Origin: Escherichia phage vB_EcoM_VR20
Sequence record: NC_028894.1
DNA: 64,000 bases
Direction: 5' to 3' (one strand)
The notes below the pieces were generated by a model. It was not told where the DNA came from. It saw nothing but the letters and a program-made list of their open reading frames with translations, and did no database searches. Within the stretch, counting starts at the first letter, position 1. Every line of letters begins with the position of its first letter. A program made the position numbers and the translations under genes. This document shows positions 694-56,532 of this stretch, in pieces.

Positions 694-931
694 CCTTGAT
701 GCATGATTCAGCCATATGAATTAATGTCTCTGGAGTATCATCTTCCATTACATTAAAGCTAAATTCCACGGCCCAATCGGTGACTACATAGACTTTGATA
801 AGTTGACCAGTTTCCCGGTCAGTGATAGCTTCAAACCAATACTTAATAGTATTCGGTTGATTATCGTCGTCAACCACATCACATTCGCGGATATGCTCAA
901 GCCCCGCTTCATTAAAATCATAAAGTCTCAT
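668..931 (-). CDS. Hypothetical small acidic protein (46.2-position)
   Basis: 87 aa ORF between 47 and 46, overlapping neighbours by a few codons. Confidence 0.4.
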   Translation of the reverse strand: MRLYDFNEAGLEHIRECDVVDDDNQPNTIKYWFEAITDRETGQLIKVYVVTDWAVEFSFNVMEDDTPETLIHMAESCIKDAYYDEDF

Positions 932-1947
932 GGTTGCACCTCAAGATATAATTTATTGGCCAATGCTTTGAGAGCTTTTGATTCTTTCTCATTGGCGTCA
1001 GGTAATGCATCGATATATTCTGCCATCATATCAGTTAAGCGTTTTATATCTAACTCTTCATCAGAGTCAGTCGTATCAACACTGTTATCAACCTTATTGA
1101 CAACACGCAATTCATGTACACGCTTTTCTAATTCGGATTCGAACTTGGTCAGGTCTTTATCGACTTTTTCTACAATAACACGGACTGATAAGTCTTTGAA
1201 GTCGTCGTAGTTAATAGTTTCGTTTGGATAGAAAATCTTCCGATGCCAGGTGGTTTCATTCGGAATAAATTTCATCTCTTCGGTTTCGGTATCAAATTCC
1301 CAGAACCCACGCGGGTCGTTCTCATCACCCGCTGTTAATGTCCATGGTGTCCCGATGTACTTAACGTTTGCAGCTTCTGAAATGGTATGAAAGTGACCAG
1401 ACCAAACTTGTTTGTACTTCTTAAGGAAATCAGGTTCAAGTCCGTGGGATTTCAATCCTTTATAGAAATAAAACCCAGTTAATTCCCAGTGACCGATGCA
1501 ATATTCAGCCCCAGAAGTTTTGATGTGTTGATGAATGTCAGTTGCGTTCTCGTCGCACATCCATGGAATCATATCAATCTGGCAACCGTCAAAATCAACA
1601 GTCGTTGGCTTATCGTAGATTTTAACATGGTCATACTTATTCAGGAGCTCAGTGATAGCATTAGGATGAATCTTATTCTTCAGATTCATGTCATGGTTCC
1701 CGACTATCGTGTGCATAGTAATTCCTGCTTCACGAAGGAGTTCCATAATCTCACGGCTGAATTCCATCGTCTTATGCGTTACGGCCTTACGGACGTCAAA
1801 AATATCACCATACTGAATCCAGACTTTAATTCCATTCGCTTTGGAATATGCAATCGCCTGTAAAATACCATCACGTTGAATGTTTTGAGCCCATGGGTCG
1901 TCAGCTTTGACACCTAAGTGCCAATCACCTAAATTTAAAATTTTCAT
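928..1947 (-). CDS. 47: Recombination endonuclease subunit gp47 (Mre11/SbcD-like phosphoesterase)
   Basis: MKILNLGDWHLGVKADD...GNHD...GHFH phosphoesterase motifs; start taken at internal Met (1947), ATGA overlap with upstream small ORF. Confidence 0.85.
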   Translation of the reverse strand: MKILNLGDWHLGVKADDPWAQNIQRDGILQAIAYSKANGIKVWIQYGDIFDVRKAVTHKTMEFSREIMELLREAGITMHTIVGNHDMNLKNKIHPNAITELLNKYDHVKIYDKPTTVDFDGCQIDMIPWMCDENATDIHQHIKTSGAEYCIGHWELTGFYFYKGLKSHGLEPDFLKKYKQVWSGHFHTISEAANVKYIGTPWTLTAGDENDPRGFWEFDTETEEMKFIPNETTWHRKIFYPNETINYDDFKDLSVRVIVEKVDKDLTKFESELEKRVHELRVVNKVDNSVDTTDSDEELDIKRLTDMMAEYIDALPDANEKESKALKALANKLYLEVQP

Positions 1948-2087
1948 AAGCCAAGCACCGTTATCGCAATGCAAAATAAAATTACTGAAATGAACCCGTC
2001 AGGAGTAGAAAAGAATCCTATCCAACAAGCTCTTGTGAATGTGTAGAATGCCATGAATAGCACGACATATCCTAAAAATAATTCCAT
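1944..2087 (-). CDS. Small hydrophobic protein (47 aa, 47.1-position)
   Basis: ORF MELFLGYVVLFMAFYTF..., GAGGAG SD upstream, stop overlaps gp47 start; below ORF-track size cutoff. Confidence 0.4.
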   Translation of the reverse strand: MELFLGYVVLFMAFYTFTRACWIGFFSTPDGFISVILFCIAITVLGL

Positions 2088-2107
2088 ATACTCTCCTCAG
2101 TTGGTTC

Positions 2108-2134
2108 ATTTTATCATCCCGAATATAAAGCAAA
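2108..2134 (-). promoter_or_regulatory. Candidate MotA-dependent middle promoter (MotA box TTTGCTTTA, 12 bp, TAAAAT)
   Basis: Minus-strand TTTGCTTTA at 2134-2126 and TAAAAT at 2113-2108, just downstream of a hairpin+T-tract, upstream of 47.1/47. Confidence 0.4.
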
Positions 2135-2152
2135 AAGGAAGCACTAGGCTTC
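2130..2152 (-). terminator. Rho-independent terminator-like hairpin (GGAAGC..GCTTCC) plus T-tract
   Basis: Inverted repeat GGAAGCctagtGCTTCC followed on minus strand by TTTTTG. Confidence 0.4.
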
Positions 2153-2317
2153 CTTTCCAATTAATACACCGTACAGAGGTTCGTGAGAAGACCTGAACTT
2201 GATAGGCTTATAGGTAATAGTACCTTCATTTTCTGCTTTAATACGAGCAGCTTCAAATTGAAGAATCATCTCGTTTTTGTCAGATTTAATCTTATCAAAA
2301 TCCGTCGAATTCGTCAT
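2144..2317 (-). CDS. Hypothetical small protein (57 aa)
   Basis: ORF MTNSTDFDKIKSDK... in the 47-55 interval. Confidence 0.3.
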   Translation of the reverse strand: MTNSTDFDKIKSDKNEMILQFEAARIKAENEGTITYKPIKFRSSHEPLYGVLIGKEA

Positions 2318-2375
2318 TCATATGACCTCTTAAAAATCTGGATGTTCGTCGTTCATTAGCCACCTGTCCATGTTA

Positions 2376-2576
2376 TCATCGTTGCCACCATTTCTTAAGT
2401 TGATGAGAATCGACCCAAACCTTGGCTACAGGCTCAATCTGAAAAATACCATCAGAATATTGGCCCATCATTTTGTATTCGGTTTCGGTTTGCTTGATAC
2501 AGATATTACCATATGAGCGAAGTCTGAAAGCGGCTCCAACAAGAAGCCGTTTAAAAGGTTTATTTACTAATGCCAT
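2376..2576 (-). CDS. Hypothetical protein
   Basis: 66 aa ORF, same strand, in 47-55 interval. Confidence 0.3.
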   Translation of the reverse strand: MALVNKPFKRLLVGAAFRLRSYGNICIKQTETEYKMMGQYSDGIFQIEPVAKVWVDSHQLKKWWQR

Positions 2577-2871
2577 TTACGATTTCCCAAATTTGTTTGC
2601 GAGTAGAATCCCACATCAACTTAATCAGGTCTTCCGTAACGGGTTGGCGGTAAATCCCACGCAGTTTAACAAGAGCATATTTGTATGCTTCAAAATTGTT
2701 TTCCAGCACTGCGCCTTGAGCATGCTTATTCAGTCGTGCAATTTCACGAGCATTCTTTTTCAGAATCTTCGCTGCTTGACTGGTTGCTTCGAGTGCGTTC
2801 GCTTCTTCGAGACGTTCCTGTGCTTCTTCAATCTGCTTATCGGTCAGTTGAGAAATATCTGGAGCTTGCAT
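2560..2871 (-). CDS. Hypothetical helical protein
   Basis: 103 aa ORF, charged/helical composition. Confidence 0.4.
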   Translation of the reverse strand: MQAPDISQLTDKQIEEAQERLEEANALEATSQAAKILKKNAREIARLNKHAQGAVLENNFEAYKYALVKLRGIYRQPVTEDLIKLMWDSTRKQIWEIVNGISK

Positions 2872-2872
2872 A

Positions 2873-3124
2873 TTAATCCTTGGGAGTTAACTCAATTGTA
2901 AAATATAGATTAGCATTATCCACATGATAACGGTAATCAACGTTATTGTCCGGAGAAGTAAATTCCAGATTCCGGACGTTTAAAGGGTCGATATCAATTG
3001 GAAGACCTTTTATGTCTCGCAGATAAAGTTTAATGAAATATGGGAGAGCCGTAAAGTCTTCCTCGATTTTATCTAAAAAATCGGTAATATCAAATTGATG
3101 TTCCATATAAAAAATCCAAATCAC
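2873..3124 (-). CDS. Hypothetical protein
   Basis: 83 aa ORF immediately downstream of gene 55. Confidence 0.4.
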
Positions 3125-3647
3125 CCTCTTTATCTTTGGCGCTCTTATCAGACCCTGGCGCTTTAACTAAAGAGGATTCGTACTGTGTCATTTTGTCATA
3201 GATGTCCTGGATAAATGTTTCATCAGCCAGAGCCACCATATCGTCGTCACGTGAATCATATACGTTATGGACGAAGTAGCTATATTTCTTTGCCATTTCT
3301 TTACGTTCTTTTTTGATACGCTGAACGAAAGCATTGAAGCAAGCCATTGTTATGTAAGCATGTGGATTATCGTATTTTGTTTCGTCGAAGTTGTGAAGAC
3401 CTTTTATTGCGGCCTCAATTCCGTCTGCTATCATTTCTTGCTTCCAGGATTGGGTATATCCGGAGAAGTTGAAACGTTTGCTAAGACCTTCGGCTATAAG
3501 CATAATCGCCAGACCAATAACATCGTTCTGGCGAATAATTTTGTTCGGGTCGGTGTTCGCATTCAGCTTCTGTTTCCACTCCGAAATAGCTTTCAAAAGC
3601 TCTTTATTATTTACATAGTTATTCTTGGTTAATTTAATTTCGTTCAT
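3090..3647 (-). CDS. 55: Late-transcription sigma factor gp55
   Basis: 185 aa; YVNNKELL...[39 protein letters not shown] nearly identical to T4 gp55. Confidence 0.9.
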
Positions 3648-3695
3648 ATCGCCTCACTTAGTATATGAATATTATATCATCCTTTATACAAAGCA

Positions 3696-3962
3696 TTAGC
3701 GAAGTAAACAGTAAGCCTGGAAGACCTTCTCCATAATTGCCTTAAATTCATGGATGTCAATATAAGGGATAACCTCGGCATCACTAATGAATTCCATCAG
3801 ACGGTCATGCTCGTTGCGGTATTGTCCTTCATTCAACATACTGATATGGGACTCCCAAGAGCCATACCCTTCTGCGTGTGGGAAGAATGTTATTTTCATG
3901 AATTCATCCACCCAAAACGTTCCCAGGTCCTGGATGGATATCATTGTATGATTGATGTGCAT
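3696..3962 (-). CDS. Hypothetical protein (55.x)
   Basis: 88 aa ORF in tight same-strand array. Confidence 0.4.
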   Translation of the reverse strand: MHINHTMISIQDLGTFWVDEFMKITFFPHAEGYGSWESHISMLNEGQYRNEHDRLMEFISDAEVIPYIDIHEFKAIMEKVFQAYCLLR

Positions 3963-13057: not shown

Positions 13058-13990
13058 TTATTTTAATGCTTTGATTGCAGCTTGCAATTTATTGCGTTGT
13101 TTTTCCATGTTCTTGATGCGATTCAGAACATCCTGGATACCCTTTTTCTCATCTTCAATCAGACCATTTAAACGGTTGACTGATTCCTGGATAGTATCAG
13201 CATGATAGCTCTCAATAGGCTTCATCGTAGGGTTAGTAACCACTATAGAATTATAAGGTTTAATTTTCCACTGATACTGTTTGGAATCGAATGGACCAGG
13301 CACCGCGGTGGTTTTGAATTTGTCATAGGCTGCATACTGGCCTACGCTGTCACATGATACTGTAGAGGTAGCGATAGAGATACGTTCCATTTCTGGTTCC
13401 TTTTTCTCTTGATAAGGAGCATAAGACAAAAGATATTCTTTAGTTAATTTAATATCAATGGCTATAGTTTTAAGGAATTTTTCCGTTTGGTGGATATAAT
13501 TTGTATCTTCATCAAACGTGTACGATTCAACAGCATGGCGCATATAAAACAGCGCAATACCCATAACCTCTTTAAAGTTATGACAAAGAGCAACATCGCC
13601 CTTGGTGGTTGGTTTGAACTTAATCTGTACACCATCATTCTTGATATTGATAATCAAGTTGTCAGAGTTAAAATTATAGTTCTTGATGTTAACCGGAGCT
13701 TTGCGAATACGAAATCCGCCGGCCAGAATTTCCTTGATACTCTTACGAACCGTGGCACCAAACAAAAACGCTGGGCGGCGGCAGTAATCATTCAGAGAGT
13801 TAATTCTTACAATACGTTGGCCATACCCCTGGGTAGCAGAACCTGATTTGATTTTGCCAAAGTTAACCAAAGAATTCATTGCGATAAGACGAGTCACACG
13901 ACCGTCATGTGGTTCATAACTACTAGCATATTCAGCGCGAGTTTTAATTTTCATATCATAGTCCAAATAATTTTTCATAAAATTTAGCAA
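13058..13990 (-). CDS. Hypothetical protein with C-terminal coiled coil
   Basis: 310 aa; C-terminus ...LIEDEKKGIQDVLNRIKNMEKQRNKLQAAIKALK. Confidence 0.5.
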   Translation of the reverse strand: MLNFMKNYLDYDMKIKTRAEYASSYEPHDGRVTRLIAMNSLVNFGKIKSGSATQGYGQRIVRINSLNDYCRRPAFLFGATVRKSIKEILAGGFRIRKAPVNIKNYNFNSDNLIINIKNDGVQIKFKPTTKGDVALCHNFKEVMGIALFYMRHAVESYTFDEDTNYIHQTEKFLKTIAIDIKLTKEYLLSYAPYQEKKEPEMERISIATSTVSCDSVGQYAAYDKFKTTAVPGPFDSKQYQWKIKPYNSIVVTNPTMKPIESYHADTIQESVNRLNGLIEDEKKGIQDVLNRIKNMEKQRNKLQAAIKALK

Positions 13991-23076: not shown

Positions 23077-23535
23077 CTAGATATAAATCACTTTTGTGCT
23101 AATTTTTCCTTCCAGACGATTAGAGTTAACAAACGCCATACGACAACACATGGTTGGAGACTTCCCAGGTAATGCCGGGTTAACTGTCATTCCTAACCAT
23201 AGGTTCTTGTCTGTGATTTCCAGACGAAGTGGACGGTAGTTCACATTCGGGTCAATTTGTGCTTCAACTTCTGGAAGCGGTTCCATTTTTAAGAATTCAA
23301 CAATTTCTTTTACATGTGGTGTGATTTTTCCAAACAAGTCAAAAACATATTGTTCGTCAATTTCACGTTGGATTGCACGGTCCAACAGGTGTGGACTGTA
23401 CTTAATGAAGAATGCTTCAAGGCCTGCTTCTTTACAAGCCTTGTTGATAGCATTATTAATTTTGAGGAACTCCGTTTCAAAAATACGACGAAGTTTATTG
23501 CGGCGAATGTAAACACTTGAATCAATAGTAGTCAT
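23077..23535 (-). CDS. regB: Endoribonuclease RegB
   Basis: 152 aa from internal Met; VYIRRNKLRR...YSPHLLDRAIQREIDEQYVFDLF...LEITDKNLWLG...CRMAFVNSNRL matches T4 RegB. Confidence 0.8.
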   Translation of the reverse strand: MTTIDSSVYIRRNKLRRIFETEFLKINNAINKACKEAGLEAFFIKYSPHLLDRAIQREIDEQYVFDLFGKITPHVKEIVEFLKMEPLPEVEAQIDPNVNYRPLRLEITDKNLWLGMTVNPALPGKSPTMCCRMAFVNSNRLEGKISTKVIYI

Positions 23536-23554
23536 GATTATCTCCTTTTGTTTG

Positions 23555-24171
<617 letters not shown>

Positions 24172-24175
<4 letters not shown>

Positions 24176-24405
24176 TTCACTTCCTCGCCAGTTGCGATAT
24201 CATATTCTACCAAACGAAGGCCATCAGTCCAACCTTGCACGGAGATATAGGTAGTCGGGTAAACAATTTCTTTACCATTCCATTGGCCACCGTCCCAGCA
24301 TTCCATAAAGCCTTGTTCGCCCTGTTCGTGGAACCAGTCAACAAACATCTTCAGAGCTTCATCAGAGCCTTCAATTGTCAATTTAGACATATTTTTTCCA
24401 GTCAC
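24172..24405 (-). CDS. Hypothetical protein
   Basis: 77 aa ORF. Confidence 0.35.
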
Positions 24406-24682
24406 TAATTAATCGCACATCCTGGTCATAGGTCAGGAGGCTACGAGTGATAATACCCTTACAAGGTCCAGAAATAAATTCCAGAGTAAAGTAAGGAACC
24501 AACTTCATCAAGCGAATACTCGGAGCAGTGCAACGAAATCTGGACCCAACAAAAGGTCCAGACAAAAACACATACTCAAAGAAATTTGCTTTATTAAAGA
24601 TTTCAAAATTCTTTACGAAATCTTCAGACCTAACTTTTGGAATAAAATAGATTTGGTCAAAAAGCTCTTCATGGGTCATCAT
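24383..24682 (-). CDS. Hypothetical protein
   Basis: 99 aa ORF. Confidence 0.35.
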   Translation of the reverse strand: MMTHEELFDQIYFIPKVRSEDFVKNFEIFNKANFFEYVFLSGPFVGSRFRCTAPSIRLMKLVPYFTLEFISGPCKGIITRSLLTYDQDVRLISDWKKYV

Positions 24683-25206
24683 TGCATTCCTATCACAAAG
24701 AATAACGGCAAAGGCTTATCACCTTGACACATAAATTTATTCATCATTACCTGATAAGCTTCATAGAACTTATCCATTGCAGGGAGGCGAATAGGTTCTT
24801 CAATAATGATTAAAAGACGCGTAAAACGCAATCCACGGTACTTATGGAAATTATCTTCATCAAGGAAACTGCGTACAGTATCATAGACAACGAATCCAGG
24901 TCGCTCAACATTAAGATGTGGTTGTGCCTTAGAAACCCGCTTTATTATATTACAGATTTCTCGTGAGCGATGCGAAGAACTCGACATAACAATCACATCA
25001 TTACCTTTGGAAACCCAATCCGCAGCAAACTGCGCAATGGCACTTGTTTTACCTGTTTGTCGTCCACCGTCAAGTCTAAGGGTACCAAACTCTTGCATTC
25101 TTGAAGCTGGTTCATACCAGGTGTATTGGTCTGAATCTAAACGTTCAATGGCGCGTTCAGCGAAGGCGTGCATTAAGGTTAGATAAATGGGAGTTAAAAA
25201 TTTCAT
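24679..25206 (-). CDS. Small P-loop NTPase
   Basis: 175 aa; Walker A GGRQTGKTSA and Walker-B-like LLIIIEEP. Confidence 0.5.
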   Translation of the reverse strand: MKFLTPIYLTLMHAFAERAIERLDSDQYTWYEPASRMQEFGTLRLDGGRQTGKTSAIAQFAADWVSKGNDVIVMSSSSHRSREICNIIKRVSKAQPHLNVERPGFVVYDTVRSFLDEDNFHKYRGLRFTRLLIIIEEPIRLPAMDKFYEAYQVMMNKFMCQGDKPLPLFFVIGMQ

Positions 25207-34008: not shown

Positions 34009-34083
34009 GGTATTTCCTTCAGATGGTTAAAGTTTTATTATCCAGGGAACATACTATCATGTTCCCAGAGGTATGTAAACATT

Positions 34084-34482
34084 TTATTTCATTTTTGCGA
34101 GGCAGATTTCATTGGCTTCCCATTGAGCTTGCTTAATAATAGCTTTGGATACAGGAACCTTTTGACCATAAGTTTTTGACGTTGAGAGAACAATATATTT
34201 GTTTGCCTCATTATGCCAGCCCCATGATTTTTCACCATGAGTACCTTTAACTACAGCTGACACCTCAACAGAACAACCATCAGCGCCAATCTTGGTATCA
34301 ACAATCCATTCATTTCGCTTAATTGCTTCTTCCAATGCTGCTGCTTCCGCCATCCAGTGTGTTTCAGGGTCTATTTGTTCAATCTCACGAGTTAACGCAG
34401 CTCCCAGGTCTTTTGCATATTTTTGTTGCTCTGGGGTTAATGAGTCATATAACTTTTTCATTTCTTTATCTTCAATATTCAT
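34084..34482 (-). CDS. Hypothetical protein
   Basis: 132 aa from MNIEDKEMKK with GAGGAAAATATT SD. Confidence 0.45.
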   Translation of the reverse strand: MNIEDKEMKKLYDSLTPEQQKYAKDLGAALTREIEQIDPETHWMAEAAALEEAIKRNEWIVDTKIGADGCSVEVSAVVKGTHGEKSWGWHNEANKYIVLSTSKTYGQKVPVSKAIIKQAQWEANEICLAKMK

Positions 34483-34516
34483 AATATTTTCCTCAAGGGG
34501 CTTTCGCCCCAATCAT

Positions 34517-35349: not shown

Positions 35350-35420
35350 TTATTATCCCGTTTGTTTATTTGGTAACTCAGTATGGAATCATTATGCCTT
35401 AGTTAAATTCCAAAGTACAT
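35350..35420 (-). promoter_or_regulatory. Class II promoter/leader cassette
   Basis: GCATAATGATTCCATACTGAGTTACCAAATAAACAAACGGGATAATAAA-ATG. Confidence 0.5.
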
Positions 35421-35421
35421 A

Positions 35422-35718
35422 TTAATTTTCAGAAGTTGGGAAATAAACTTCAAAGTCATACATGTTTACTACTGCAGTCGCGATTGCTTGGTACTGCATA
35501 CCCAAGAAAGTTTTCTTGTTCTTACGCCACAAGTTAACCATTTCTGTTTTGATGCATGCCAGGGAGTAGTTGGATGCAGGATACTGTTTGATGATTGCAA
35601 CAACTTCTTCAGAAGCAGTTTCGCACAATTCATTCAGTTGAGCTTCAATTTTAGCAGAAATGATTGCTTTGTTTTCTTCTTGAGCTTGGGTAGCGTGCCA
35701 TGCAGGTGCGTTGAACAT
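35422..35718 (-). CDS. Hypothetical protein
   Basis: 98 aa ORF, class II leader upstream. Confidence 0.45.
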   Translation of the reverse strand: MFNAPAWHATQAQEENKAIISAKIEAQLNELCETASEEVVAIIKQYPASNYSLACIKTEMVNLWRKNKKTFLGMQYQAIATAVVNMYDFEVYFPTSEN

Positions 35719-36344: not shown

Positions 36345-36365
36345 AAAAAAGCCCGCAATGCGGGC
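36345..36365 (-). terminator. Rho-independent terminator
   Basis: GCCCGCaatGCGGGC hairpin followed on minus strand by TTTTTT, 3 nt after stop of 36368..36922. Confidence 0.6.
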
Positions 36366-36367
36366 TG

Positions 36368-36922
36368 TTAGTTCTTATAAAAGCGGAACGGATTTATATG
36401 AAAGGCGAGCATAGCCTTAGGGATGGGTCGGGACAGAAGGCTCTTGAGCTTCCAGCCACAATAAACACGCAGATAAAAGGTGATTCCACCGACCTTAAGA
36501 TAAGGAACAGAAGCAAAAACACCCCAGGCGTTGTCCGTCCACATCCAGAGCCATCCATGATGAGCTTTATCCGGGGAACCAGATTCGACATCAGGATTAC
36601 CTTTATAATGGAATTCTGAATTGCAATCACGACCGAGCTTGTGGTAAGCAAAATTGTATGCTTTGTTTCGCCAGAGCCAGGCTACTCGTTGGAAGTAAAC
36701 ACCTAACGGCCATTTTCTGATTTTTTCCCAGCGTTTAACATGACCACGGTCACCATCAATTGGATTATCGTATGTCATCATCCAGTCAAATCCGAACGGA
36801 AGCTTACCAGTCTTTTTGTTATGGAACGGCACTACAAATGGTGCAAGGATAACAGCCAGAATCATTGAAATGAAATCCAGTGGCACTAACAGAATCCAGC
36901 TTAGATATTTTAAAAGTTTCAT
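36368..36922 (-). CDS. Membrane-anchored protein, apparently late-expressed
   Basis: 184 aa; N-terminal TM LSWILLVPLDFISMILAVILAPFVV then Trp-rich soluble domain; TATAAATA ~27 nt upstream. Confidence 0.5.
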   Translation of the reverse strand: MKLLKYLSWILLVPLDFISMILAVILAPFVVPFHNKKTGKLPFGFDWMMTYDNPIDGDRGHVKRWEKIRKWPLGVYFQRVAWLWRNKAYNFAYHKLGRDCNSEFHYKGNPDVESGSPDKAHHGWLWMWTDNAWGVFASVPYLKVGGITFYLRVYCGWKLKSLLSRPIPKAMLAFHINPFRFYKN

Positions 36923-36948
36923 AAATTTCCTTAGTTATGGGTACGTTA

Positions 36949-36956
36949 TATTTATA
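36949..36956 (-). promoter_or_regulatory. T4-type late promoter TATAAATA
   Basis: Exact TATAAATA on minus strand upstream of 36368..36922. Confidence 0.5.
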
Positions 36957-36984
36957 AAAAAGCCCCAACCTTTCGGAAGGGGCT
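36954..36984 (-). terminator. Terminator-like hairpin
   Basis: AGCCCC..GGGGCT imperfect hairpin followed on minus strand by TTTTTAT; downstream of 37033..37416. Confidence 0.4.
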
Positions 36985-37032
36985 AAGCCTTGCGGCAACC
37001 TTGTCGGGGTTCCACCTGCTAGGCAAGTGTTC

Positions 37033-37416
37033 TTATCCGCGTGCGAATGCCATTGCAGCGCGTTCGTTGGCACGGTCAGTGATGTTCAAGAATTTATCAC
37101 GAGCGATTTCGATTGGAGCACCAACCCAGTCAGCAGCACCATTACCTGGGGACTGTTTAGGACGAACCATATAAGTTGAAACTTTGGAACCAGCTAGTTT
37201 AGCACCAGGTGCAGCGGCATTCTTAACGTCTTTAGCTTTGATACCAAAACCAGTTACGATGCCCCAAGAAACACCATTAACTGGTTTCTTGAACATAACA
37301 CGGTCGCCAATTGAAACACCCGCTTTTTCTGGAGCTACTAAAGAAAATTTACCGGCTTCAGTCAGCACGGATTCGGTGATGGTATTGCGATTTAAAAATT
37401 CTGCATATGTAAGCAT
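37033..37416 (-). CDS. Hypothetical protein with CTS-like N-terminus
   Basis: 127 aa; MLTYAEFLNRNTITE resembles capsid targeting sequences. Confidence 0.45.
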   Translation of the reverse strand: MLTYAEFLNRNTITESVLTEAGKFSLVAPEKAGVSIGDRVMFKKPVNGVSWGIVTGFGIKAKDVKNAAAPGAKLAGSKVSTYMVRPKQSPGNGAADWVGAPIEIARDKFLNITDRANERAAMAFARG

Positions 37417-37653
37417 TTTGTTTTTCCATTATTAGGGTTGTTGTTAATATTTATATTCCATAGTACCGGATGCACCATCCGCTCGGATTTCTCATACTAC
37501 CGGGCGCACCGCCCGCTCTGGAAAAACTCCATAAAAAGGTGCGCCGTTTCTGCTGTGATATAAGGGGACATCAACAAATCGTAAAGATTTATTAATGTCA
37601 GTCCTTAAACAGGGAACATCAGTCCGACGACTTACCGGTAGCGACCCGGTTTC
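37417..37653 (-). other. GC-rich structured intergenic segment (candidate small stable RNA)
   Basis: Hairpins CGGGCGgtgCGCCCG, CGGATGgtgCATCCG, ACCGGgtcgctaCCGGT within 240 bp lacking an ORF, adjacent to the tRNA genes. Confidence 0.3.
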
Positions 37654-37893
37654 TCATTCAATTGTAATAGCTAATTTGACTTTAACAACCTTATAATTGG
37701 AATCAAGGTCATTGAATTCCATAAAATTTGTTGCTAATCTGCGAGTCGGGAAACTTAGATATTTATTATGAGCCGGAGGAGCGGTTAATGCAAACCATGG
37801 GACTTGTTTATCATTTGCATCGAACTCGTCAAAACTATAAACCAGCTCGTTGTTGGTTATATCCATAACCGCATAGGATTCGTTAATAACCAT
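37654..37893 (-). CDS. Hypothetical protein
   Basis: 79 aa ORF downstream of tRNA-Arg. Confidence 0.4.
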   Translation of the reverse strand: MVINESYAVMDITNNELVYSFDEFDANDKQVPWFALTAPPAHNKYLSFPTRRLATNFMEFNDLDSNYKVVKVKLAITIE

Positions 37894-37910
37894 ATAATAT
37901 CCTCAGTAAT

Positions 37911-37987
37911 TGGTCGGGGTGGTGGGATTCTAACCCACAACCTACGGTTTAGAAGACCGTTGCTCTATACAATTGAGCTACACCCCG
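37911..37987 (-). tRNA. tRNA-Arg (anticodon UCU), CCA encoded
   Basis: Manual cloverleaf: acceptor CGGGGTG/CACCCCG, D-stem GCTC/GAGC, anticodon stem ACGGT/ACCGT, loop CTTCTAA, T-arm GTGGG-TTAGAAT-CCCAC. Confidence 0.8.
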
Positions 37988-37989
37988 AG

Positions 37990-38062
37990 TGGCCCCATCC
38001 GGACTTGAACCGGAAACCTGCCAGTTATGAGCCGGATGCTCTAACCAATTGAGCTACAGGGC
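37990..38062 (-). tRNA. tRNA with CAU anticodon (Met or Ile)
   Basis: Manual cloverleaf: acceptor GGCCCTG/TGGGGCC, D-arm GCTC-AATTGGTTA-GAGC, loop CTCATAA, T-arm TCCGG-TTCAAGT-CCGGA; one mismatch in anticodon stem. Confidence 0.7.
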
Positions 38063-38068
38063 CTAAAA

Positions 38069-38341
38069 TTAAATTACAAATCCAGCGGGAGCATTATCAT
38101 CTTTTGCCATGTGCTGAATTGTATGATAAGTCATTTCTTCAGGAGCAACCAGATAAGCCGCAACGTTAACTAGTGGAATTATTTTTGGTTTAGCGAATGT
38201 GCTATCGGCAATTGCCATAAAGGACTCGCCGTCGGTCTCAACTTCGCCAAATTGACATTCATATGAAATAGAACAACGTTTGGTAGTTGTTGTCTTGGTT
38301 TCCGGGTCATAAAAAGCTAATTTTAATACTAACATAAACAC
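38069..38341 (-). CDS. Hypothetical protein
   Basis: 90 aa ORF immediately upstream of tRNAs. Confidence 0.4.
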   Translation of the reverse strand: MFMLVLKLAFYDPETKTTTTKRCSISYECQFGEVETDGESFMAIADSTFAKPKIIPLVNVAAYLVAPEEMTYHTIQHMAKDDNAPAGFVI

Positions 38342-38456
38342 CTCAAATAAAATTAAGTAAAGTAAGTTTGATTAATAGCACATGCTATTATGAAAGATTC
38401 TTTGAGGGAAGAACCTTTGGTAATAGAGGGTACTTATTAATAATAACGCGTTTTTG

Positions 38457-38939
38457 TTAAAGCATATCAAGCGCTTTAACAGATGGGATTCGGATTTCTT
38501 CTTCGATTATATATAGCTTAACATAAGAAATTACACGCATGAAATCGCCATCATATTCGCAAGCCATACCTAAAAGTTCAGTCAGAGCTTCATTCAGGTA
38601 GTATTCTTCATCATCGTCATTCAACAAGGCTTCCAAATCTGCAATACCAAGAACTTTATTCAAAAATTCATAAGTCAACTGCCCAGATTTTACACCAGAT
38701 GCAATGTGGGCGATAACCAAGTGTTTAACCACATCCCATTCTGAATTACCACATTTATTGCGGTTGTTACAATGCGAACCATGGAAAAGTTCCAGGATAT
38801 ATTTGTACTGTTGGATTTCTTGTTCTTCTACGCCAAATACCATTTGGGTTTTATAGTTGTCACCATCATTTTCCCAGGTTTCAATTTCAATCGCATAACC
38901 TTTAGGGATGGTCTGACCAAATTTGATATTCATTCGCAT
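38457..38939 (-). CDS. Hypothetical acidic protein
   Basis: 160 aa ORF. Confidence 0.45.
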   Translation of the reverse strand: MRMNIKFGQTIPKGYAIEIETWENDGDNYKTQMVFGVEEQEIQQYKYILELFHGSHCNNRNKCGNSEWDVVKHLVIAHIASGVKSGQLTYEFLNKVLGIADLEALLNDDDEEYYLNEALTELLGMACEYDGDFMRVISYVKLYIIEEEIRIPSVKALDML

Positions 38940-39319
38940 GTTCCTTCATCAACAATAGTATGCGTATTGGCATTAACAATCTGCCACCAGTCAAAACGGT
39001 TGGAACCATAACAAGGCTTTTTCTCGTTTTCTTTAATGATATCGCGCAGTTCATCTTCAGTCGCAGCTTTTGCAATTAAGTCAGCATAACCGCCACGAGG
39101 ATAATAACTATCACCAGCAAAGAGCAAAAAGTTTGTTTTGATATTCTTGAATTCTTCAAGAGTAATAACTGTTCCAGATGGTTGAACAATATCTACGTAA
39201 CTATATCCTAATTTCTGGGCATTATCTACCGCTTCAAGCAGGGTGTCATGTGCCCACCCAATTTGGCACTCTGGCTTTTCAGATGGATTGGCCTGATAAT
39301 CCGCATACACTTTATACAT
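38930..39319 (-). CDS. Hypothetical protein
   Basis: 129 aa from internal Met MYKVYADYQ with AAGGTGAG SD. Confidence 0.45.
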   Translation of the reverse strand: MYKVYADYQANPSEKPECQIGWAHDTLLEAVDNAQKLGYSYVDIVQPSGTVITLEEFKNIKTNFLLFAGDSYYPRGGYADLIAKAATEDELRDIIKENEKKPCYGSNRFDWWQIVNANTHTIVDEGTCE

Positions 39320-41854: not shown

Positions 41855-41855
<1 letters not shown>

Positions 41856-42532
41856 TATAGTACCTTATTAATTTTATCAAAAAGTTCATCGAGTGTGCCA
41901 TCGTTTTTAATAACAATGTCACTAGCTAGTGGTGGAAGTCCAGCTTCCGTAATGTGTGTATCAGTAGAATGATTTGCTTCATCGCGTTCTACAAAGATTA
42001 TTGTAGCACCCATCGCCCGAAGCGAATCAAGTTCGTTCTTTTGGCGAACATCCGGGACAACGTAATATTTATATCCAGAATAGAGGTTGTCAAGATAGTC
42101 GCATGCAAAAGTTTTAATCCAAAACATGCTGTCGAACTCTGTACAAACGATGTCAGTTCCAAGGGTCTGCATGAAACGTCTAACTGTCCAGGGCTCAACA
42201 TTATTTAGTGTGTGAAATTCAATAATTTTACGAACCATATCTGGATTCGGAAGGTCAAGATTGTATTGTTGTTTCAACCATTCAAGAGCATCAACCAGAA
42301 GAATATAAGCTTCGGTGTTGTTCATTATCAAGGTTTTTTCACGGTCATAACCTTGTCCATCAAAATTTTCCAGGGTCAAATTGTGTGGTAGGTCTTGACG
42401 AATCCACGCTTTATAAAGCGCTTCTTTAATCGGACCCGCAAGCTGCCACTTTGTTCCGTTTTGACTAATAACATAATCAGCAGTCGTATCTTTACCACTG
42501 CGTTTTTTACCCACAATCGCAATTAATTTCAT
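41855..42532 (-). CDS. 1: Deoxynucleoside monophosphate kinase gp1
   Basis: 225 aa; P-loop IAIVGKKRSGKDTTADYV. Confidence 0.8.
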
Positions 42533-45135: not shown

Positions 45136-46874
45136 TTAATATGTCAGATAATGTAAGTTGGTTCGTCGGGGTTGTCGAAGACCGAATGGACCCACTTCAG
45201 CAAGGTCGTGTTCGTGTTCGTGTATGGGGTATGCATCCATATGAGAAAGCACAAGGGCCTGTTAAAGGTATCAGAACCGAAGACCTTCCTTGGATGTCTG
45301 TATTGATGCCGACATCATCTGCATCAGTTTCTGGGATTCAAACTGCCATGACTGGTATGGTCCCAGGTACTCAAGTATATGGTCACTTTTTAGACAAGTG
45401 GAAGCTCAACGGTCTTGTTATTGGTACGTATGGTTCAGCCTCAAGACAAAAAGCAAATCCTAACGAAGGTTTCTCTGACCCCACAGGGCAATACCCACTT
45501 TATGTTGGTAATGATGCGGCGGCGCTTAACCGTGGCGGTGAAGTCGGTTATGATGCAACTTCGAACGTAATTCAGGATGCAAACCTTGACCTTGGTATTA
45601 ACCCCGATGGCCTTGATCTGAGTCAGGTTAAACCGGATGATAATCCTAATTTCACAATTGAAAATATGCTCCACCGTGATGAAGGTCTTCGACTGAAGGT
45701 ATATTGGGACACCGAAGGTTATCCTACTATAGGTATAGGGCACTTAATTGCACCACAACCTATTAGAGATATGAATCAGATAAACAAAATATTATCTAAT
45801 CAAATAGGCCGTGAAGTTAAAGGTAACCCTGGTGCAATATCAATGGACGAGGCTTCTAAGTTATTTCAAGAAGACCTTAAAAAAGTTCAAAACGATATAG
45901 GTAGGCATAGCGTTGTGGGCCCGGTTTATAATAAAGAAAACCGTTCGAGACAAATGGCTCTTGAAAACATGGCTTTCCAAATGGGATTAGGCGGATTGGC
46001 TAAATTCCGTGGAATGCTTAGCGCAATGTTAGTAGGTGATTATAAAAAGGCATTTGAGGAAGCTCGTAATTCAGTATGGTTTAACCAAACTAAAGGGCGT
46101 GCATCAAGGGTATCAATGATTATCCTTACGGGTAATATGGAATCATACGGTATTATGGCCCCAAAAGAAAGAGAATTTAAAGGGCGTTCGTATAGGATGA
46201 TTCAAACCTTTGCGGCTCCTACAAATTCTGACCCAGCCGACCCGTGGACTCCAGAAGATACAAGGATTCTATTTAAAGAGCCAGAATCAAGTTACAAGGG
46301 CGAATATCCTTATGTGCAGACAATGCAAACCGAAGGCGGGCATGTACAGGAATTCGATAACACCCCAGGGCAAGAACGTTATCGACTGATTCATCCGACC
46401 GGTTCCTATGAGGAAGTTGCACCAGATGGTCGTAAGACTTCGAAGACAGTGGCTGATGGTTATTATATGACCCAGGGCGATTCGAGTACTTACGTTGGTG
46501 GTAATAATAAAGTCAACGTTGGTGGTGATGAAACCTATTATAATATGGCTAATGTTCGTCGTCAGACCGATGGAAACGAAACCATCCATATTCGTGGTAA
46601 CGAAGAGAAAACTGTAGAAGGTAATGGGACTCTTCGTGTTAAAGGCAACGTTACTGTTATTGTTGAAGGAAATGCTGACGTTACTGTTAAGGGGGATGCG
46701 ACTACAATGGTAGAAGGCAACGAAACTCGCACAACTAATGGTAATTTAAATTGGACTGTAAATGGTACCGTATCGTGGACTTGTGCAGGTGCTTGGTCCG
46801 AGACTATGGCTTCAATGAGTTCTATTGCATCAGGTCAATATACTATTGATGGTTCGAGGATTGACATTGGCTAA
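45132..46874 (+). CDS. 5: Baseplate hub subunit and tail lysozyme gp5
   Basis: 580 aa; lysozyme motif DTEGYPTIGIGHL; C-terminal VxGxxxxx beta-helix repeats. Confidence 0.9.
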   Translation: MINMSDNVSWFVGVVEDRMDPLQQGRVRVRVWGMHPYEKAQGPVKGIRTEDLPWMSVLMPTSSASVSGIQTAMTGMVPGTQVYGHFLDKWKLNGLVIGTYGSASRQKANPNEGFSDPTGQYPLYVGNDAAALNRGGEVGYDATSNVIQDANLDLGINPDGLDLSQVKPDDNPNFTIENMLHRDEGLRLKVYWDTEGYPTIGIGHLIAPQPIRDMNQINKILSNQIGREVKGNPGAISMDEASKLFQEDLKKVQNDIGRHSVVGPVYNKENRSRQMALENMAFQMGLGGLAKFRGMLSAMLVGDYKKAFEEARNSVWFNQTKGRASRVSMIILTGNMESYGIMAPKEREFKGRSYRMIQTFAAPTNSDPADPWTPEDTRILFKEPESSYKGEYPYVQTMQTEGGHVQEFDNTPGQERYRLIHPTGSYEEVAPDGRKTSKTVADGYYMTQGDSSTYVGGNNKVNVGGDETYYNMANVRRQTDGNETIHIRGNEEKTVEGNGTLRVKGNVTVIVEGNADVTVKGDATTMVEGNETRTTNGNLNWTVNGTVSWTCAGAWSETMASMSSIASGQYTIDGSRIDIG

Positions 46875-46908
46875 TATACTTCCAATGAGCACTGACTTAG
46901 GAGACTCC

Positions 46909-47406
46909 ATGGAAGGAGCTTCAATCGATGTTACGTTTACAGCTCAATTAGAAACAAACGAAACATTAGTCGAAATAAATATAACTGAATATGAGGCCAC
47001 CCCTGGCGTTAATGTTGAGGGTAATCATCTTTATGGTGTTTATGAATCCGTGTTCGGATTTGCAGATGATGCGCTTAAATACCGACTTAACGATGAATTC
47101 AAAACTGCCGGTTCATGGGAAGACCTTCCTGCAGATAAGAGTACTCAATTGTATCTCTGGAGGGCCCCAGCGAGCCTCCAGAAGGTCTTTTCATACACGG
47201 TAACCCTAACCTATGACTTTCAAGAAGAGAGCTCTGGTGGAGACACAGGGAGCTCTGGCGGCAGTAATAGCCGTGCAGGTAATGAGACCGACCCACCTCC
47301 TGCTCCAGTAAGAAAGACAATGACAAAAGTTTACACAAAAACTATTGTCGGTAACTGGTCAAGATGGGCAGATAAATTGCGTTCATACGTATACGCGAGG
47401 GATTAA
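46909..47406 (+). CDS. 5.1: Baseplate-associated protein gp5.1
   Basis: 165 aa from MEGASIDV with AGGAGA SD; position between 5 and 5.4. Confidence 0.5.
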
Positions 47407-47699
47407 TGGCTGGATTAAGTTTTAATCAATGTGTTACAGCAGGTCACGAAGCATGGCCGCCGACTGTAATCAATGCAACTCAAGGTAAAGTATTCACCGG
47501 GGGAATTCCGGTATTAGTTGCCGGAGACCCTATTACCGAGCATACCGAAATTAAAAAACCATATGAAACCCATGGTGGAGTAACACAACCGAGAACTCCG
47601 AAGGTATTCGTTACCGGTAAGAAAGCTGTTCAAATGGCAGACCCGATTTCATGTGGTGATACTGTGGCTCAAGCCTCATCAAAAGTCTTTATAAAATAG
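47406..47699 (+). CDS. 5.4: PAAR-repeat spike tip protein gp5.4
   Basis: 97 aa, same length as T4 gp5.4, PAAR-like. Confidence 0.75.
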
Positions 47700-54721: not shown

Positions 54722-56532
54722 TGAAACAAAATTTAAAAATAGGCGTGATGGTCGATGATGGTACCGGCGATTATCTTCGTCTCGGCGGCCAAAAAATTAA
54801 TAACAACTTTGATGACCTTTACTACCAGCTTGGCGATGGAGAAAATCCTCATGCTGCGGGTGCATGGAAAACATGGACCGTGGCCGACGGCACAACTCTG
54901 GAAGCCGTTATGGGTCGTAGTTATGCAGTGAATACCTCAAATGGTATGATTACTGTTAAGCTTCCTAAAGGAACTCCGTCCGAATATAATTACGTTATTC
55001 GTTTGCGTGATGTGTTTGCAACCTGGCAAGTCTCCCCGGTGACGATTGTTCCGGCTGTTGGCGACACAATGAAAGGCTCTCCTGACCCTGTTGTTATCCG
55101 TCGTAACCTGGCAGATATCGAACTGGTTTATTGCTCTCCTGGTCGTTGGGAATACATTGACAACAAACAGATTGACAAGATTTCGAATAATGACGTGGCA
55201 ACTGTTGAGACCCAGCAATTCATCGCGACAGAAGGTCAAACGGACTTCCTGGATGTGTTTAATGGTCGTCCTTATAACATCGCAAGCCTCGAAGTTAAAC
55301 ATCGTGGTAACGACCTGTTTTATGGCAAAGATGATATTTTCGACCCGGTGAATGCTGAATTCGGTTCGCCTGGTGCAGCGCCTGGTGAAATTGTAACCCT
55401 TGACGGTCGCAATATTCGTTTACGTATGCCTTGTGCAGCTGGTGACACGGTTATTGTCAGAACATTCAACGATGGTATTGCTCAGTATCGTAGTTCTTAT
55501 AACCGTCGAGATGTTCAAATCCGTGATTCGAAATTTACTCTTGAAACCCCGGTCGAAGGCTCTTTGGTTGTAGCTGATTTATCCACTAAACACACATTTA
55601 TGGTTACTGAACTTGCGGTATCGCCTAGCAGTCCAATTAACCCGAATGCCTGTGAAGTTTATATTAACAGCATATTACAACACGAAGCAGGAACTGCAAA
55701 CTATCCAGCTTATACCTGCGAAGGTGCTGATGGTGAAACTGCAGAAGAGTGTACAGATAATGGTGGTCAATGGTCTAAATCAAAAGAAGACTATATAACA
55801 GCCTTTGATGAAGACAACCGTATTGAATCTTTTGAGTTTGCTCGCACATTTGAAGATGGTGATATTCTGTCTATCGTTTGGTATAATAACGATATCGGCA
55901 CCACAATGACTCTTGACGAAATTACAGATGAAACAAATAACATCTATGTTTCCCAGGGTCCAGAAGTTTCAATCACCGGCGATATAAGAATTACGGATTA
56001 CGATAATCCGTTTGCTCCTAACCTGGAACCGGTGGACCCGAGCGAAATTAAACCATCTGCTGTTTCTATTCTCTTTAATATGTTCCATCCAATTGGCACA
56101 ATTTACGAGAACACGACTAACCCAAATAACCCTGCAACATATATGGGTATGGGAACATGGAAGCGCCTTGAAGAGCGTGTTTTGATTGGTTGGTCTTCTG
56201 ACCCGGCCTCAAACTTCCATACAAACAATAACGACCTGGATTCTTCTGGTGTTCCACAGGCGACTGCAGGTGGTACCGGGGGTAATGTACAGATTCATAT
56301 TAAATCAAACAATATTCCTAAAATTCGGACCGATGAAAAAGTATTGGTAGCTGATGCAACTGGTCCAATTATTGTTGGTGGTTGTCAGGTTGACCCAGAT
56401 GCTCAAGGTCCTGCTTATACAAACTATCGCGAAGATTATGCGACTATTAACGAAGCTCTTGACCCACTGGCACAGCCAATAGATACGCTTCCTCCATATT
56501 TGATTGTTTACCGTTGGGTAAGGATTGCATAA
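54721..56532 (+). CDS. 10: Baseplate wedge subunit and tail pin gp10
   Basis: 603 aa; synteny and size. Confidence 0.85.
   Translation: MKQNLKIGVMVDDGTGDYLRLGGQKINNNFDDLYYQLGDGENPHAAGAWKTWTVADGTTLEAVMGRSYAVNTSNGMITVKLPKGTPSEYNYVIRLRDVFATWQVSPVTIVPAVGDTMKGSPDPVVIRRNLADIELVYCSPGRWEYIDNKQIDKISNNDVATVETQQFIATEGQTDFLDVFNGRPYNIASLEVKHRGNDLFYGKDDIFDPVNAEFGSPGAAPGEIVTLDGRNIRLRMPCAAGDTVIVRTFNDGIAQYRSSYNRRDVQIRDSKFTLETPVEGSLVVADLSTKHTFMVTELAVSPSSPINPNACEVYINSILQHEAGTANYPAYTCEGADGETAEECTDNGGQWSKSKEDYITAFDEDNRIESFEFARTFEDGDILSIVWYNNDIGTTMTLDEITDETNNIYVSQGPEVSITGDIRITDYDNPFAPNLEPVDPSEIKPSAVSILFNMFHPIGTIYENTTNPNNPATYMGMGTWKRLEERVLIGWSSDPASNFHTNNNDLDSSGVPQATAGGTGGNVQIHIKSNNIPKIRTDEKVLVADATGPIIVGGCQVDPDAQGPAYTNYREDYATINEALDPLAQPIDTLPPYLIVYRWVRIA

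Follow-up and report, generated by a model that had tools for sequence, protein, structure and literature searches.

Absence of the a-gt gene in a Gaprivervirus phage and a predicted dCMP methylase encoded by td

The 64,000-nucleotide stretch of Escherichia phage vB_EcoM_VR20 DNA analyzed here (NC_028894.1; hereafter the window) lacks the alpha-glucosyltransferase gene (a-gt) that in T4 lies between gene 47 and gene 55. We read this absence as part of a layout shared across the genus Gaprivervirus, whose members would attach no sugar to their DNA and would replace cytosine by means of a variant of the thymidylate synthase (TS) homolog Td that carries aspartate at residue 187 (Td-Asp187), yielding 5-methylcytosine (5mC); this account as a whole is held with moderate confidence. 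Taken together, it is very probable that this layout characterizes the genus and that the phage does not glycosylate its DNA. The missing gene itself is an ordinary and already known feature, long visible in the public annotation of phages SP18 and VR7, and the 5mC mechanism is a new and testable prediction drawn from loci outside the window.

Absence of DNA glycosyltransferase genes

Searches of the whole window by tblastn with T4 a-gt (400 amino acids, aa) and with mobB give chance-level matches only, which bears out a sequence-only reading of this DNA that had reported no a-gt between genes 47 and 55. The best a-gt match (55147–55458, E = 0.54) falls within baseplate gene 10, and so is not a relocated copy. 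The spacing from gene 47 to gene 55 is 1,142 bp in the window vs. 3,152 bp in T4, and the shortfall of ~2.0 kb corresponds to a-gt (1,203 bp), mobB (795 bp), and their spacers. As that reading had described (~1.1 kb with small open reading frames, ORFs), the interval is filled by five minus-strand ORFs of 47–103 aa, each of which tblastn pairs with a T4 ORF and each of which can be placed in a PHROG or Pfam family. None of them qualifies as an a-gt fragment; all five match other T4 ORFs. Nor is there a hidden a-gt remnant between the a-gt.2 and 47.1 homologs, because the spacer there, which holds a terminator and a promoter, is only 56 bp (2088–2143) and too short.

The wider search for agt and bgt that the same reading had proposed was run on the window and on the complete SP18 genome and returned no homolog. 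T4 a-gt finds nothing below E = 1 in SP18, and T4 b-gt (the T2/T6 beta-alpha transferase was not a query) has best E values of 2.3 in the window and 0.97 in SP18. Gene 42 (gp42) is absent from both by tblastn, as are RB69 p003, p045–p048, p050–p053, and p055, except for a TS-like match that is td itself. Pfam searches, which did not include a fold-level screen, found no glycosyltransferase, methyltransferase, or sugar-nucleotide domains in 26 window or SP18 ORFs without assigned function; apart from DUFs, the same screen gave only domains like those of T4 y05I and, in nrdC.11, which T4 has as well, a nucleotidyltransferase of the RlaP type. No DNA methyltransferase is annotated in SP18.

The uvsX–imm and td loci lie outside the window and were read from relatives that are 93–98% identical. 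In RB69, JS98, and VR5, the genes for arabinosyl-5-hydroxycytosine are sited between uvsX and gene 43, in JS98 and VR5 as orf38–42 between uvsX and orf43–imm. SP18, VR7, and UPEC01 have the order uvsX, orf43 homolog, imm, 43, with the five-gene block missing and no b-gt. Among the phages with the arabinosyl-5-hydroxycytosine system (RB69, JS98, VR5, and DLP3; PMC13326640), RB69, JS98, and VR5 resemble Gaprivervirus in having gp56, gp1, alc, and denB and are likewise without a-gt between 47 and 55; the system differs in carrying a D169N TS homolog (a 5-hydroxy-dCMP, or 5hodCMP, synthase, dCMP being deoxycytidine monophosphate), arabinosyltransferases, and UDP-arabinose genes, all of which Gaprivervirus lacks. 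A protein of 166–176 aa with no Pfam hit is kept between uvsX and imm (SP18 gp045, 23130–23660; UPEC01 37643–38146; VR7 24373–24876). Its family, that of JS98 orf43, is present in ~113 phage records, including Dhakavirus, Enterobacter, Kosakonia, Serratia, Edwardsiella, and Pectobacterium phages, with only ~50% identity between Gaprivervirus and Dhakavirus. Identification of SP18 gp045 with the nucleotide kinase RB69 p045 was rejected, as there is neither a sequence match nor a Pfam hit.

Sequence comparison shows that the window belongs to a T4-like Gaprivervirus phage. It is collinear with SP18 31.7–96.2 kb, and its best matches are Gaprivervirus-classified records. By megablast, the first 25 kb are 93–95.5% identical to about a dozen isolates, and positions 900–3700 are 98.6% identical to TH41 and UPEC01, 97.4% to SP18, and 94.2% to VR7. 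In the public index searched, no contig matches the window exactly, the best reaching 96–98%. The a-gt-less order from 47 to 55 is common to RB69 (Mosigvirus), JS98 and VR5 (Dhakavirus), SP18, VR7, and UPEC01, and SP18 annotation already lists homologs of a-gt.2–a-gt.5 without a-gt. Contigs encoding an identical a-gt.4 protein occur in 68 blocks of the public index, and six independent public contigs of this kind have the same a-gt-less order. SP18, VR7, and UPEC01 share with the window the gene order 55, a-gt.5, a-gt.4, a-gt.3, a-gt.2, 47.1, 47 and the same terminator/middle-promoter spacer, and differ by small indels only, such as an extra ~70–100 bp in SP18 between a-gt.2 and a-gt.3; several Gaprivervirus records have no 47.1 annotation. 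Phage records with a T4-type a-gt number 657, those listed being from Tequatrovirus-type and Klebsiella/Raoultella phages, and in the Jiaodavirus Mineola (a Klebsiella phage) it stands between a-gt.2 and 47, in a T4-like locus. By these comparisons, the absence of a-gt is a lineage trait, standard outside Tequatrovirus and Jiaodavirus, with nothing special to this phage.

Published work describes Gaprivervirus as lacking gene 42 and every known base-modifying enzyme while keeping dCTPase, denB, alc, denA, and ndd, and papers of 2021 and 2025 leave the base of its DNA unassigned (PMC8056088; PMC12115623). Arabinosyl-5-hydroxycytosine has been established in RB69 and DLP3, and the genera assigned to this pathway include Dhakavirus but not Gaprivervirus (2026 study, PMC13326640). 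Gordeeva et al. scored VR5 and T4 DNA as glycosylated, T4 147 DNA as hydroxymethylated, and VR7 DNA as having “modified cytosines” and as unglycosylated (PMC6326788 and supplement). VR7 DNA resists methylation-sensitive restriction enzymes, and in the T4 beta-glucosyltransferase test, T4 147 was scored as hydroxymethylated and VR7 was not (PMC6326788). The BREX system gave no protection against T4 or VR5 and >1e11-fold protection against VR7 (PMC6326788). The 47–55 interval alone is not predictive of modification, since the DNA of VR5 is glycosylated even though a-gt is missing from its interval too.

The suggestion in the sequence-only reading that the phage may lack alpha-glucosylation agrees with these results, there being no a-gt, b-gt, or arabinosyltransferase in the window or SP18 and no glycosylation of VR7 DNA. 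Its further suggestion of a different modification is supported, as far as sequence and literature show, by the modified, sugar-free cytosines of VR7 (PMC6326788), and the bearing on host defense that it anticipated is seen in the full block of VR7 by BREX, which glycosylated T4 and VR5 escape (PMC6326788). Its assumption that the base is hydroxymethylcytosine (hmC) appears mistaken: with gene 42 missing from the genus, Gaprivervirus DNA probably contains no hmC that could be glucosylated.

Td with aspartate at residue 187

SP18 td encodes a full-length thymidylate synthase (NC_014595, 144065–144925; in VR7, HM563683, 142489–143349), and no second TS homolog besides td was found in SP18 by tblastn (ThyX was not searched). 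The protein aligns with the T4 Td crystal structure 1TIS gap-free through residue 243 (E = 6e-128), with D187 opposite N187. At this residue (Asn177 in E. coli numbering) SP18 Td has Asp, in the context ...RSVDVFLGLPFDIGSYGTLLH..., vs. LPFNIASYA in T4, JS98, and E. coli. All full-length Gaprivervirus Td proteins retrieved (SP18, UPEC01, DK-13/pEC-M719-6WT.2, VR25, VR26, VR7, P479, MN01, CJ20, P8/TH40, and several metagenomic copies) read DVFLGLPFDIGSY (PFDIGSY vs. PFNIASY), MALPPCH, and ...PMAV. The next-closest Td homologs have Asn (PFN) in 115 of 116 cases, and among the best 150 representatives of 50% clusters, 133 have Asn and five have Asp.

The remainder of the active site appears to be that of a canonical enzyme. 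The Td clusters carry PF00303, and the td genes of the relatives keep the catalytic Cys146, together with Leu143 (MALPPCH), His147, Asp169 (RSVDVF), and the C-terminal PMAV; frd adjoins td. Among the 12 residues within ≤6 Å of C5 (list from PMC13326640), only position 187 differs from JS98 Td. Overall, Td is an outlier in the genus: the SP18 protein shares 65–69% identity with the Td proteins of T4 and JS98, and these two are ~84% identical to one another; NrdA, encoded next to td, is 86–90% identical in all three comparisons among SP18, T4, and JS98.

In an otherwise canonical TS, the N177D substitution shifts the substrate from deoxyuridine monophosphate (dUMP) to dCMP, with 5-methyl-dCMP (5mdCMP) as the product (PMC8670742; PMC13326640). 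A hydrophobic residue at 143 goes with methyl transfer, L143D/E with hydroxymethyl transfer, and D169N with a 5-hydroxy-dCMP synthase (PMC13326640). Five of seven natural Asp177 homologs, as well as the Xp12 enzyme, yielded 5-methyldeoxycytidine (5mdC) in vivo with T4 gp1, which phosphorylates 5mdCMP in vivo, and 5mC phages obtain thymidylate by deamination of 5-methyl-dC nucleotides (bioRxiv 10.1101/2024.12.05.627091). Under these published rules, Gaprivervirus Td would be expected to use dCMP and to transfer a methyl group, because it combines Asp187 with retained Leu143, Cys146, Asp169, and TS C-terminus.

Two kinds of known enzyme invite comparison. The engineered dCMP methylases E. coli TS N177D and L. 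casei TS N229D have the same single change in a canonical TS. SP18 Td scores 225.3 bits against PDB entries 1NJC and 1NJD, which we take to be the L. casei N229D mutant, and 223.0 bits against the commonest L. casei sequence. These laboratory mutants are single substitutions, whereas the natural Td has 38 further genus-specific ones, including A179G and A182G beside the Asp. Xp12, PaMx74, and the metagenomic Asp177 homologs (bioRxiv 10.1101/2024.12.05.627091; PMC8670742) resemble Gaprivervirus in having an Asp177 TS as the only pyrimidine C5 enzyme, along with a dCMP-family deaminase; the likeness is predicted to extend to complete replacement of C by 5mC and to dT derived from 5mdC nucleotides. 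These are unrelated siphovirus-type or metagenomic phages, whereas the Gaprivervirus enzyme is the resident T4-type td product at the frd–td–nrdA locus and matches T4 Td at ~68% identity, the genome also keeps Alc, DenB, and gp56, and the product is a predicted one.

The same residue occurs in two Acinetobacter phages, 133 and ZZ1, which have Alc, DenB, and dCTPase and no known modifying enzyme (2021 paper, PMC8056088). Both td genes encode Asp at position 177 and keep Leu143; in the 100 kb of ZZ1 examined, there is no second TS homolog and no transferase homolog. DLP3, a related Acinetobacter phage with a separate, proven 5hodCMP synthase, has Asn in Td. Because each Asp form is closest to Asn forms of its own host group, the switch from Asn to Asp arose more than once. 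A further Asp-type Td is encoded at the frd–td locus of an uncultured T4-like contig (P0069), and its nearest cultured relatives are Gaprivervirus Td proteins; en-bloc transfer of frd–td from such a metagenomic phage was considered and found unsupported, as the Frd proteins of P0069 and SP18 share only 49% identity.

In some genus members td is split (P0136, 183 aa, ending ...VDVFLG; P0131 and P0132, 104 aa). The split point coincides exactly with the site at which T4 td carries its group I intron and precedes the Asp187 codon by four codons; some members of the genus apparently have an intron right beside the residue that switches specificity.

Judged by sequence, the “thymidylate synthase” records of Gaprivervirus, 133, and ZZ1 are probably mis-annotated dCMP methylases. 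No paper linking Gaprivervirus td to 5mC was found in the literature searched.

Predicted pathway and competing explanations

Because the genus keeps gp56 dCTPase, Alc, DenB, dCMP deaminase, DHFR, and gp1, we infer that Gaprivervirus still replaces cytosine at the nucleotide level, and the replacing enzyme is most likely the td product with Asp187. In the predicted pathway, gp56 would convert dCTP to dCMP, and Td-Asp187 would methylate dCMP to 5-methyl-dCMP, with Frd recycling folate. The dNMP kinase gp1 and host NDP kinase would then raise 5-methyl-dCMP to the di- and triphosphate for incorporation into DNA, and dTMP would be supplied by deamination of 5-methyl-dC nucleotides or by host ThyA. 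Gene 1 (41855–42532, minus strand; Pfam DNMK PF21448, E = 1e-76; equivalent to SP18 gp1) is the only step of this pathway that lies inside the window. The resulting 5mC DNA would evade many cytosine-sensitive restriction enzymes but, having no sugar to shield it, would be open to BREX, and type IV enzymes that depend on methylation would be able to attack it. This prediction fits the VR7 pattern, in which methylation-sensitive enzymes are blocked and the DNA is unglycosylated and was not scored as hydroxymethylated after the T4 b-gt test. On balance, we lean toward 5mC made by Td-Asp187 as the Gaprivervirus base. A fuller version, by which Gaprivervirus turned Td into a dCMP methylase after losing a gene-42-type enzyme and the transferases, ZZ1 and 133 did so independently, and 5mC fully replaces C, is put forward as only slightly better than an even proposition.

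Several points weigh against 5mC as the base. The td and uvsX–imm loci of this phage are deduced from relatives 93–98% identical, and VR7 has been described only as having “modified cytosines”; the Gaprivervirus base is predicted rather than chemically identified. The N177 rule is strong and not absolute: two of the seven Asp177 homologs gave no 5mdC (bioRxiv 10.1101/2024.12.05.627091), and the residue rules are correlations with some failures. If Td is a dCMP methylase, there is no dedicated dUMP methylase, and host ThyA or deamination of 5-methyl-dC would be required. Alc and DenB would also have to tolerate 5mC DNA.

With respect to Alc, the possibility that SP18 alc is a pseudogene was dismissed: alca encodes the complete protein of 167 aa, and alcb, an additional fragment corresponding to the N-terminus, is also found in VR7. 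This alcb ORF (SP18 138588–138821; VR7 137010–137243, ORF243c) adjoins the intact alc gene, encodes ~77 aa resembling the N-terminal part of Alc, and is present in at least two genus members. Divergence of Alc was also set aside as a sign of a new base, as Alc is ~50–55% identical in all pairs among T4, JS98, and SP18.

The strongest competitor, itself unlikely, is a different non-glycosylated base, either because Td-Asp187 makes, for example, 5-hydroxymethyl-dCMP, or because another enzyme acts and the change in Td is incidental. Such a base would be covered equally by the wording “modified cytosines” for VR7 (PMC6326788) and by the 2021 and 2025 papers, which leave the base open; the product rules for L143 and D169 are correlations, with two of seven Asp177 enzymes giving no 5mdC; and the SP18 gp045/JS98 orf43 family protein persists at the old modification locus. 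Against this, VR7 was not called hydroxymethylated in the T4 beta-glucosyltransferase test performed alongside T4 147. Leu143, Asp169, the TS C-terminus, and the adjoining frd fit methyl transfer, and SP18 has no other TS homolog and no annotated DNA methyltransferase.

Ordinary cytosine DNA, the whole modification system having simply been lost, is much less probable. The lack of a gene-42-type enzyme and of any transferase would be expected in that case, and Krischvirus and Pseudotevenvirus, which have ordinary C, also keep a gp56-like dCTPase/dUTPase and denA (PMC12115623). However, the genus retains alc and denB, whose products are directed against cytosine DNA, and its gp56 shows 84% identity to that of RB69; the DNA of VR7 withstands methylation-sensitive enzymes and was judged to be modified (PMC6326788); and the replacement of Asn by Asp in Td is fixed throughout Gaprivervirus and is seen again in two Acinetobacter lineages, which is unexpected under simple loss. 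Glycosylation by a transferase elsewhere in the genome (a-gt or b-gt at a new site, an arabinosyltransferase of the RB69 type, or an unrecognized enzyme) is just as improbable: although the window is 64 kb of a ~170 kb genome, VR5 combines the same interval with glycosylated DNA, and several window ORFs of 280–330 aa are without assigned function (nrdC.4, nrdC.6, DUF7235, DUF7275/7277), tblastn with T4 a-gt, b-gt, and the RB69 cluster is empty in the window and in complete SP18, the uvsX–imm cluster is missing in UPEC01 (the closest annotated relative), SP18, and VR7, the ORFs without assigned function have no glycosyltransferase Pfam domain, the large ones among them also occur in T4 or JS98, phages with known or assigned transferases, and VR7 DNA is reported as unglycosylated and BREX-sensitive (PMC6326788).

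Organization of the interval and meaning for the genus

Throughout the first ~45 kb of the window, every gene runs on the minus strand. To the left, the interval is bordered by gene 47 (928–1947, minus), encoding an SbcD-like recombination endonuclease subunit that matches T4 gp47 at 72% over 338 aa (tblastn, E = 6e-170; phrog_100); its T4-like ATG (MKILNLGDWHLG) is at 1947, and the ORF tool extends it to 1974 via an upstream TTG. The 47.1 homolog (1944–2087, minus) is a predicted membrane peptide of 47 aa, 80% identical to T4 gp47.1 (E = 1e-21; phrog_6693), and its stop overlaps the gene 47 ATG at 1947 (ATGA), as in T4. The four other small ORFs, all on the minus strand and all matched by tblastn with their T4 namesakes, are homologs of a-gt.2 (2144–2317; 57 aa; 52%, E = 7e-19; phrog_2140, Pfam DUF5486), a-gt.3 (2376–2576; 66 aa; 42%, E = 2e-13; phrog_1648), a-gt.4 (2560–2871; 103 aa; 42%, E = 9e-22; phrog_951, Pfam DUF2654), and a-gt.5 (2873–3106; 77 aa from the ATG at 3106; 39%, E = 7e-13; phrog_1169, DUF5491). 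The 77-aa a-gt.5 product is also called in SP18 and six contigs, and the GTG at 3124 chosen by the ORF tool would give 83 aa; the sequence-only reading had placed the end of the interval at 3124, and a small ORF does lie there, although that end relies on the upstream GTG. The right border is gene 55 (3090–3647, minus), encoding the late sigma factor (80% to T4 gp55, E = 9e-97; phrog_234), which a-gt.5 overlaps by 17 nucleotides, an overlap conserved in T4.

Some GenBank records (PP693301, MW233709, PQ341120) call the a-gt.2, a-gt.3, and a-gt.4 homologs “head maturation protease,” “anti-restriction nuclease,” or “hemolysin.” Apart from one weak secondary match of a-gt.2 to a PHROG labelled “head maturation protease,” PHROGs and Pfam assign these proteins to families without an assigned function, and because of this the labels look like annotation carry-over; they were rejected as annotation noise for a-gt.2–a-gt.4 (window 2144–2871).

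A terminator and a middle-promoter-like site, both noted by the sequence-only reading, can be located in and beside the 56-bp spacer. The terminator scan gives an intrinsic-terminator-like hairpin of 12 pairs at 2131–2159 (minus strand), GGAAAGGAAGC-CTAGT-GCTTCCTTT followed by a T run, and the a-gt.2 stop TAG (2144–2146) falls in its loop; T4, RB69, SP18, and Mineola have equivalent hairpins at the same spot. In T4 middle promoters, the -10 element TAnnnT is preceded at a distance of ~12 bp by a MotA box with the consensus (a/t)(a/t)(a/t)TGCTT(t/c)A. By sequence reading, the site at 2108–2134 (minus strand) has TTTGCTTTA at 2126–2134, a 12-nucleotide spacer, and the -10 element TAAAAT at 2108–2113, and is followed by the Shine–Dalgarno sequence GAGGAG (2093–2098) and the 47.1 ATG. 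The site fits this pattern and, judged from the T4 consensus, would function as a MotA-dependent middle promoter.

The T4 locus has the same flanking genes and collinear homologs of all five small ORFs, with both overlaps kept, but differs in having a-gt (400 aa) and the HNH homing endonuclease gene mobB between two terminator and promoter modules. In minus-strand comparison, the window, SP18, and RB69 have a single terminator and MotA-promoter module after a-gt.2, and in RB69 its promoter drives gene 47 directly. T4 has two, one after a-gt.2 leading into mobB/a-gt and the other after a-gt leading into 47.1/47. The two T4 modules (NC_000866 36584–36624 and 38679–38731; compare window 2088–2143) are near-identical to each other. 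One module in place of two around mobB and a-gt therefore suggests clean presence or absence of a cassette at the module, and in sequence a-gt and mobB look like a cassette, bounded by repeated regulatory modules and exchanged at them, that some lineages carry and others lack.

Other differences between the window and its relatives lie away from the interval. A 72-aa ORF (475–693, minus) stands at the 46.1 position between genes 46 and 46.2; positions 478–669 have no SP18 megablast match and no SP18 ORF, UPEC01 has a 71-aa ORF, and two metagenomic contigs (L021 and L024) match through. By these comparisons this ORF is a small presence/absence polymorphism. The window encodes an intact 310-aa DUF7235 protein (13058–13990, minus) with a full-length match to the 307-position Pfam model; the SP18 annotation splits this gene into two pieces, gp092 and gp093, which suggests a frameshift or an error of sequencing in that genome. 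Further stretches without an SP18 megablast match (34066–34515, 35395–35716, 36358–37538, 37966–38943, and 46653–47697) lie near the tRNA region and in a large gene between gene 5 and gene 6, and include a DUF7338 protein (36368–36922) and several ORFs without a family.

The value of the a-gt absence is as a pointer to the acknowledged question of the base of this genus, to which the comparison offers a specific answer. The genus is used in phage-therapy isolations, and therapy recommendations have been withheld over the unassigned base (PMC12115623). The base decides which defenses stop a phage, as BREX blocks a sugar-free genus member and not glycosylated T4 or VR5. If the base is 5mC, methyl-dependent type IV enzymes should likewise act on the DNA, and its behavior in sequencing and cloning would be predictable. 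Residue 177 offers a simple sequence marker to inspect before a phage protein is named “thymidylate synthase.” If the proposal is true, it would answer the question of the “unknown base” raised for the genus in 2021 and 2025, and 5mC would be a third cytosine-replacement chemistry among T4-like phages, beside glucosyl-hmC and arabinosyl-5-hydroxycytosine.

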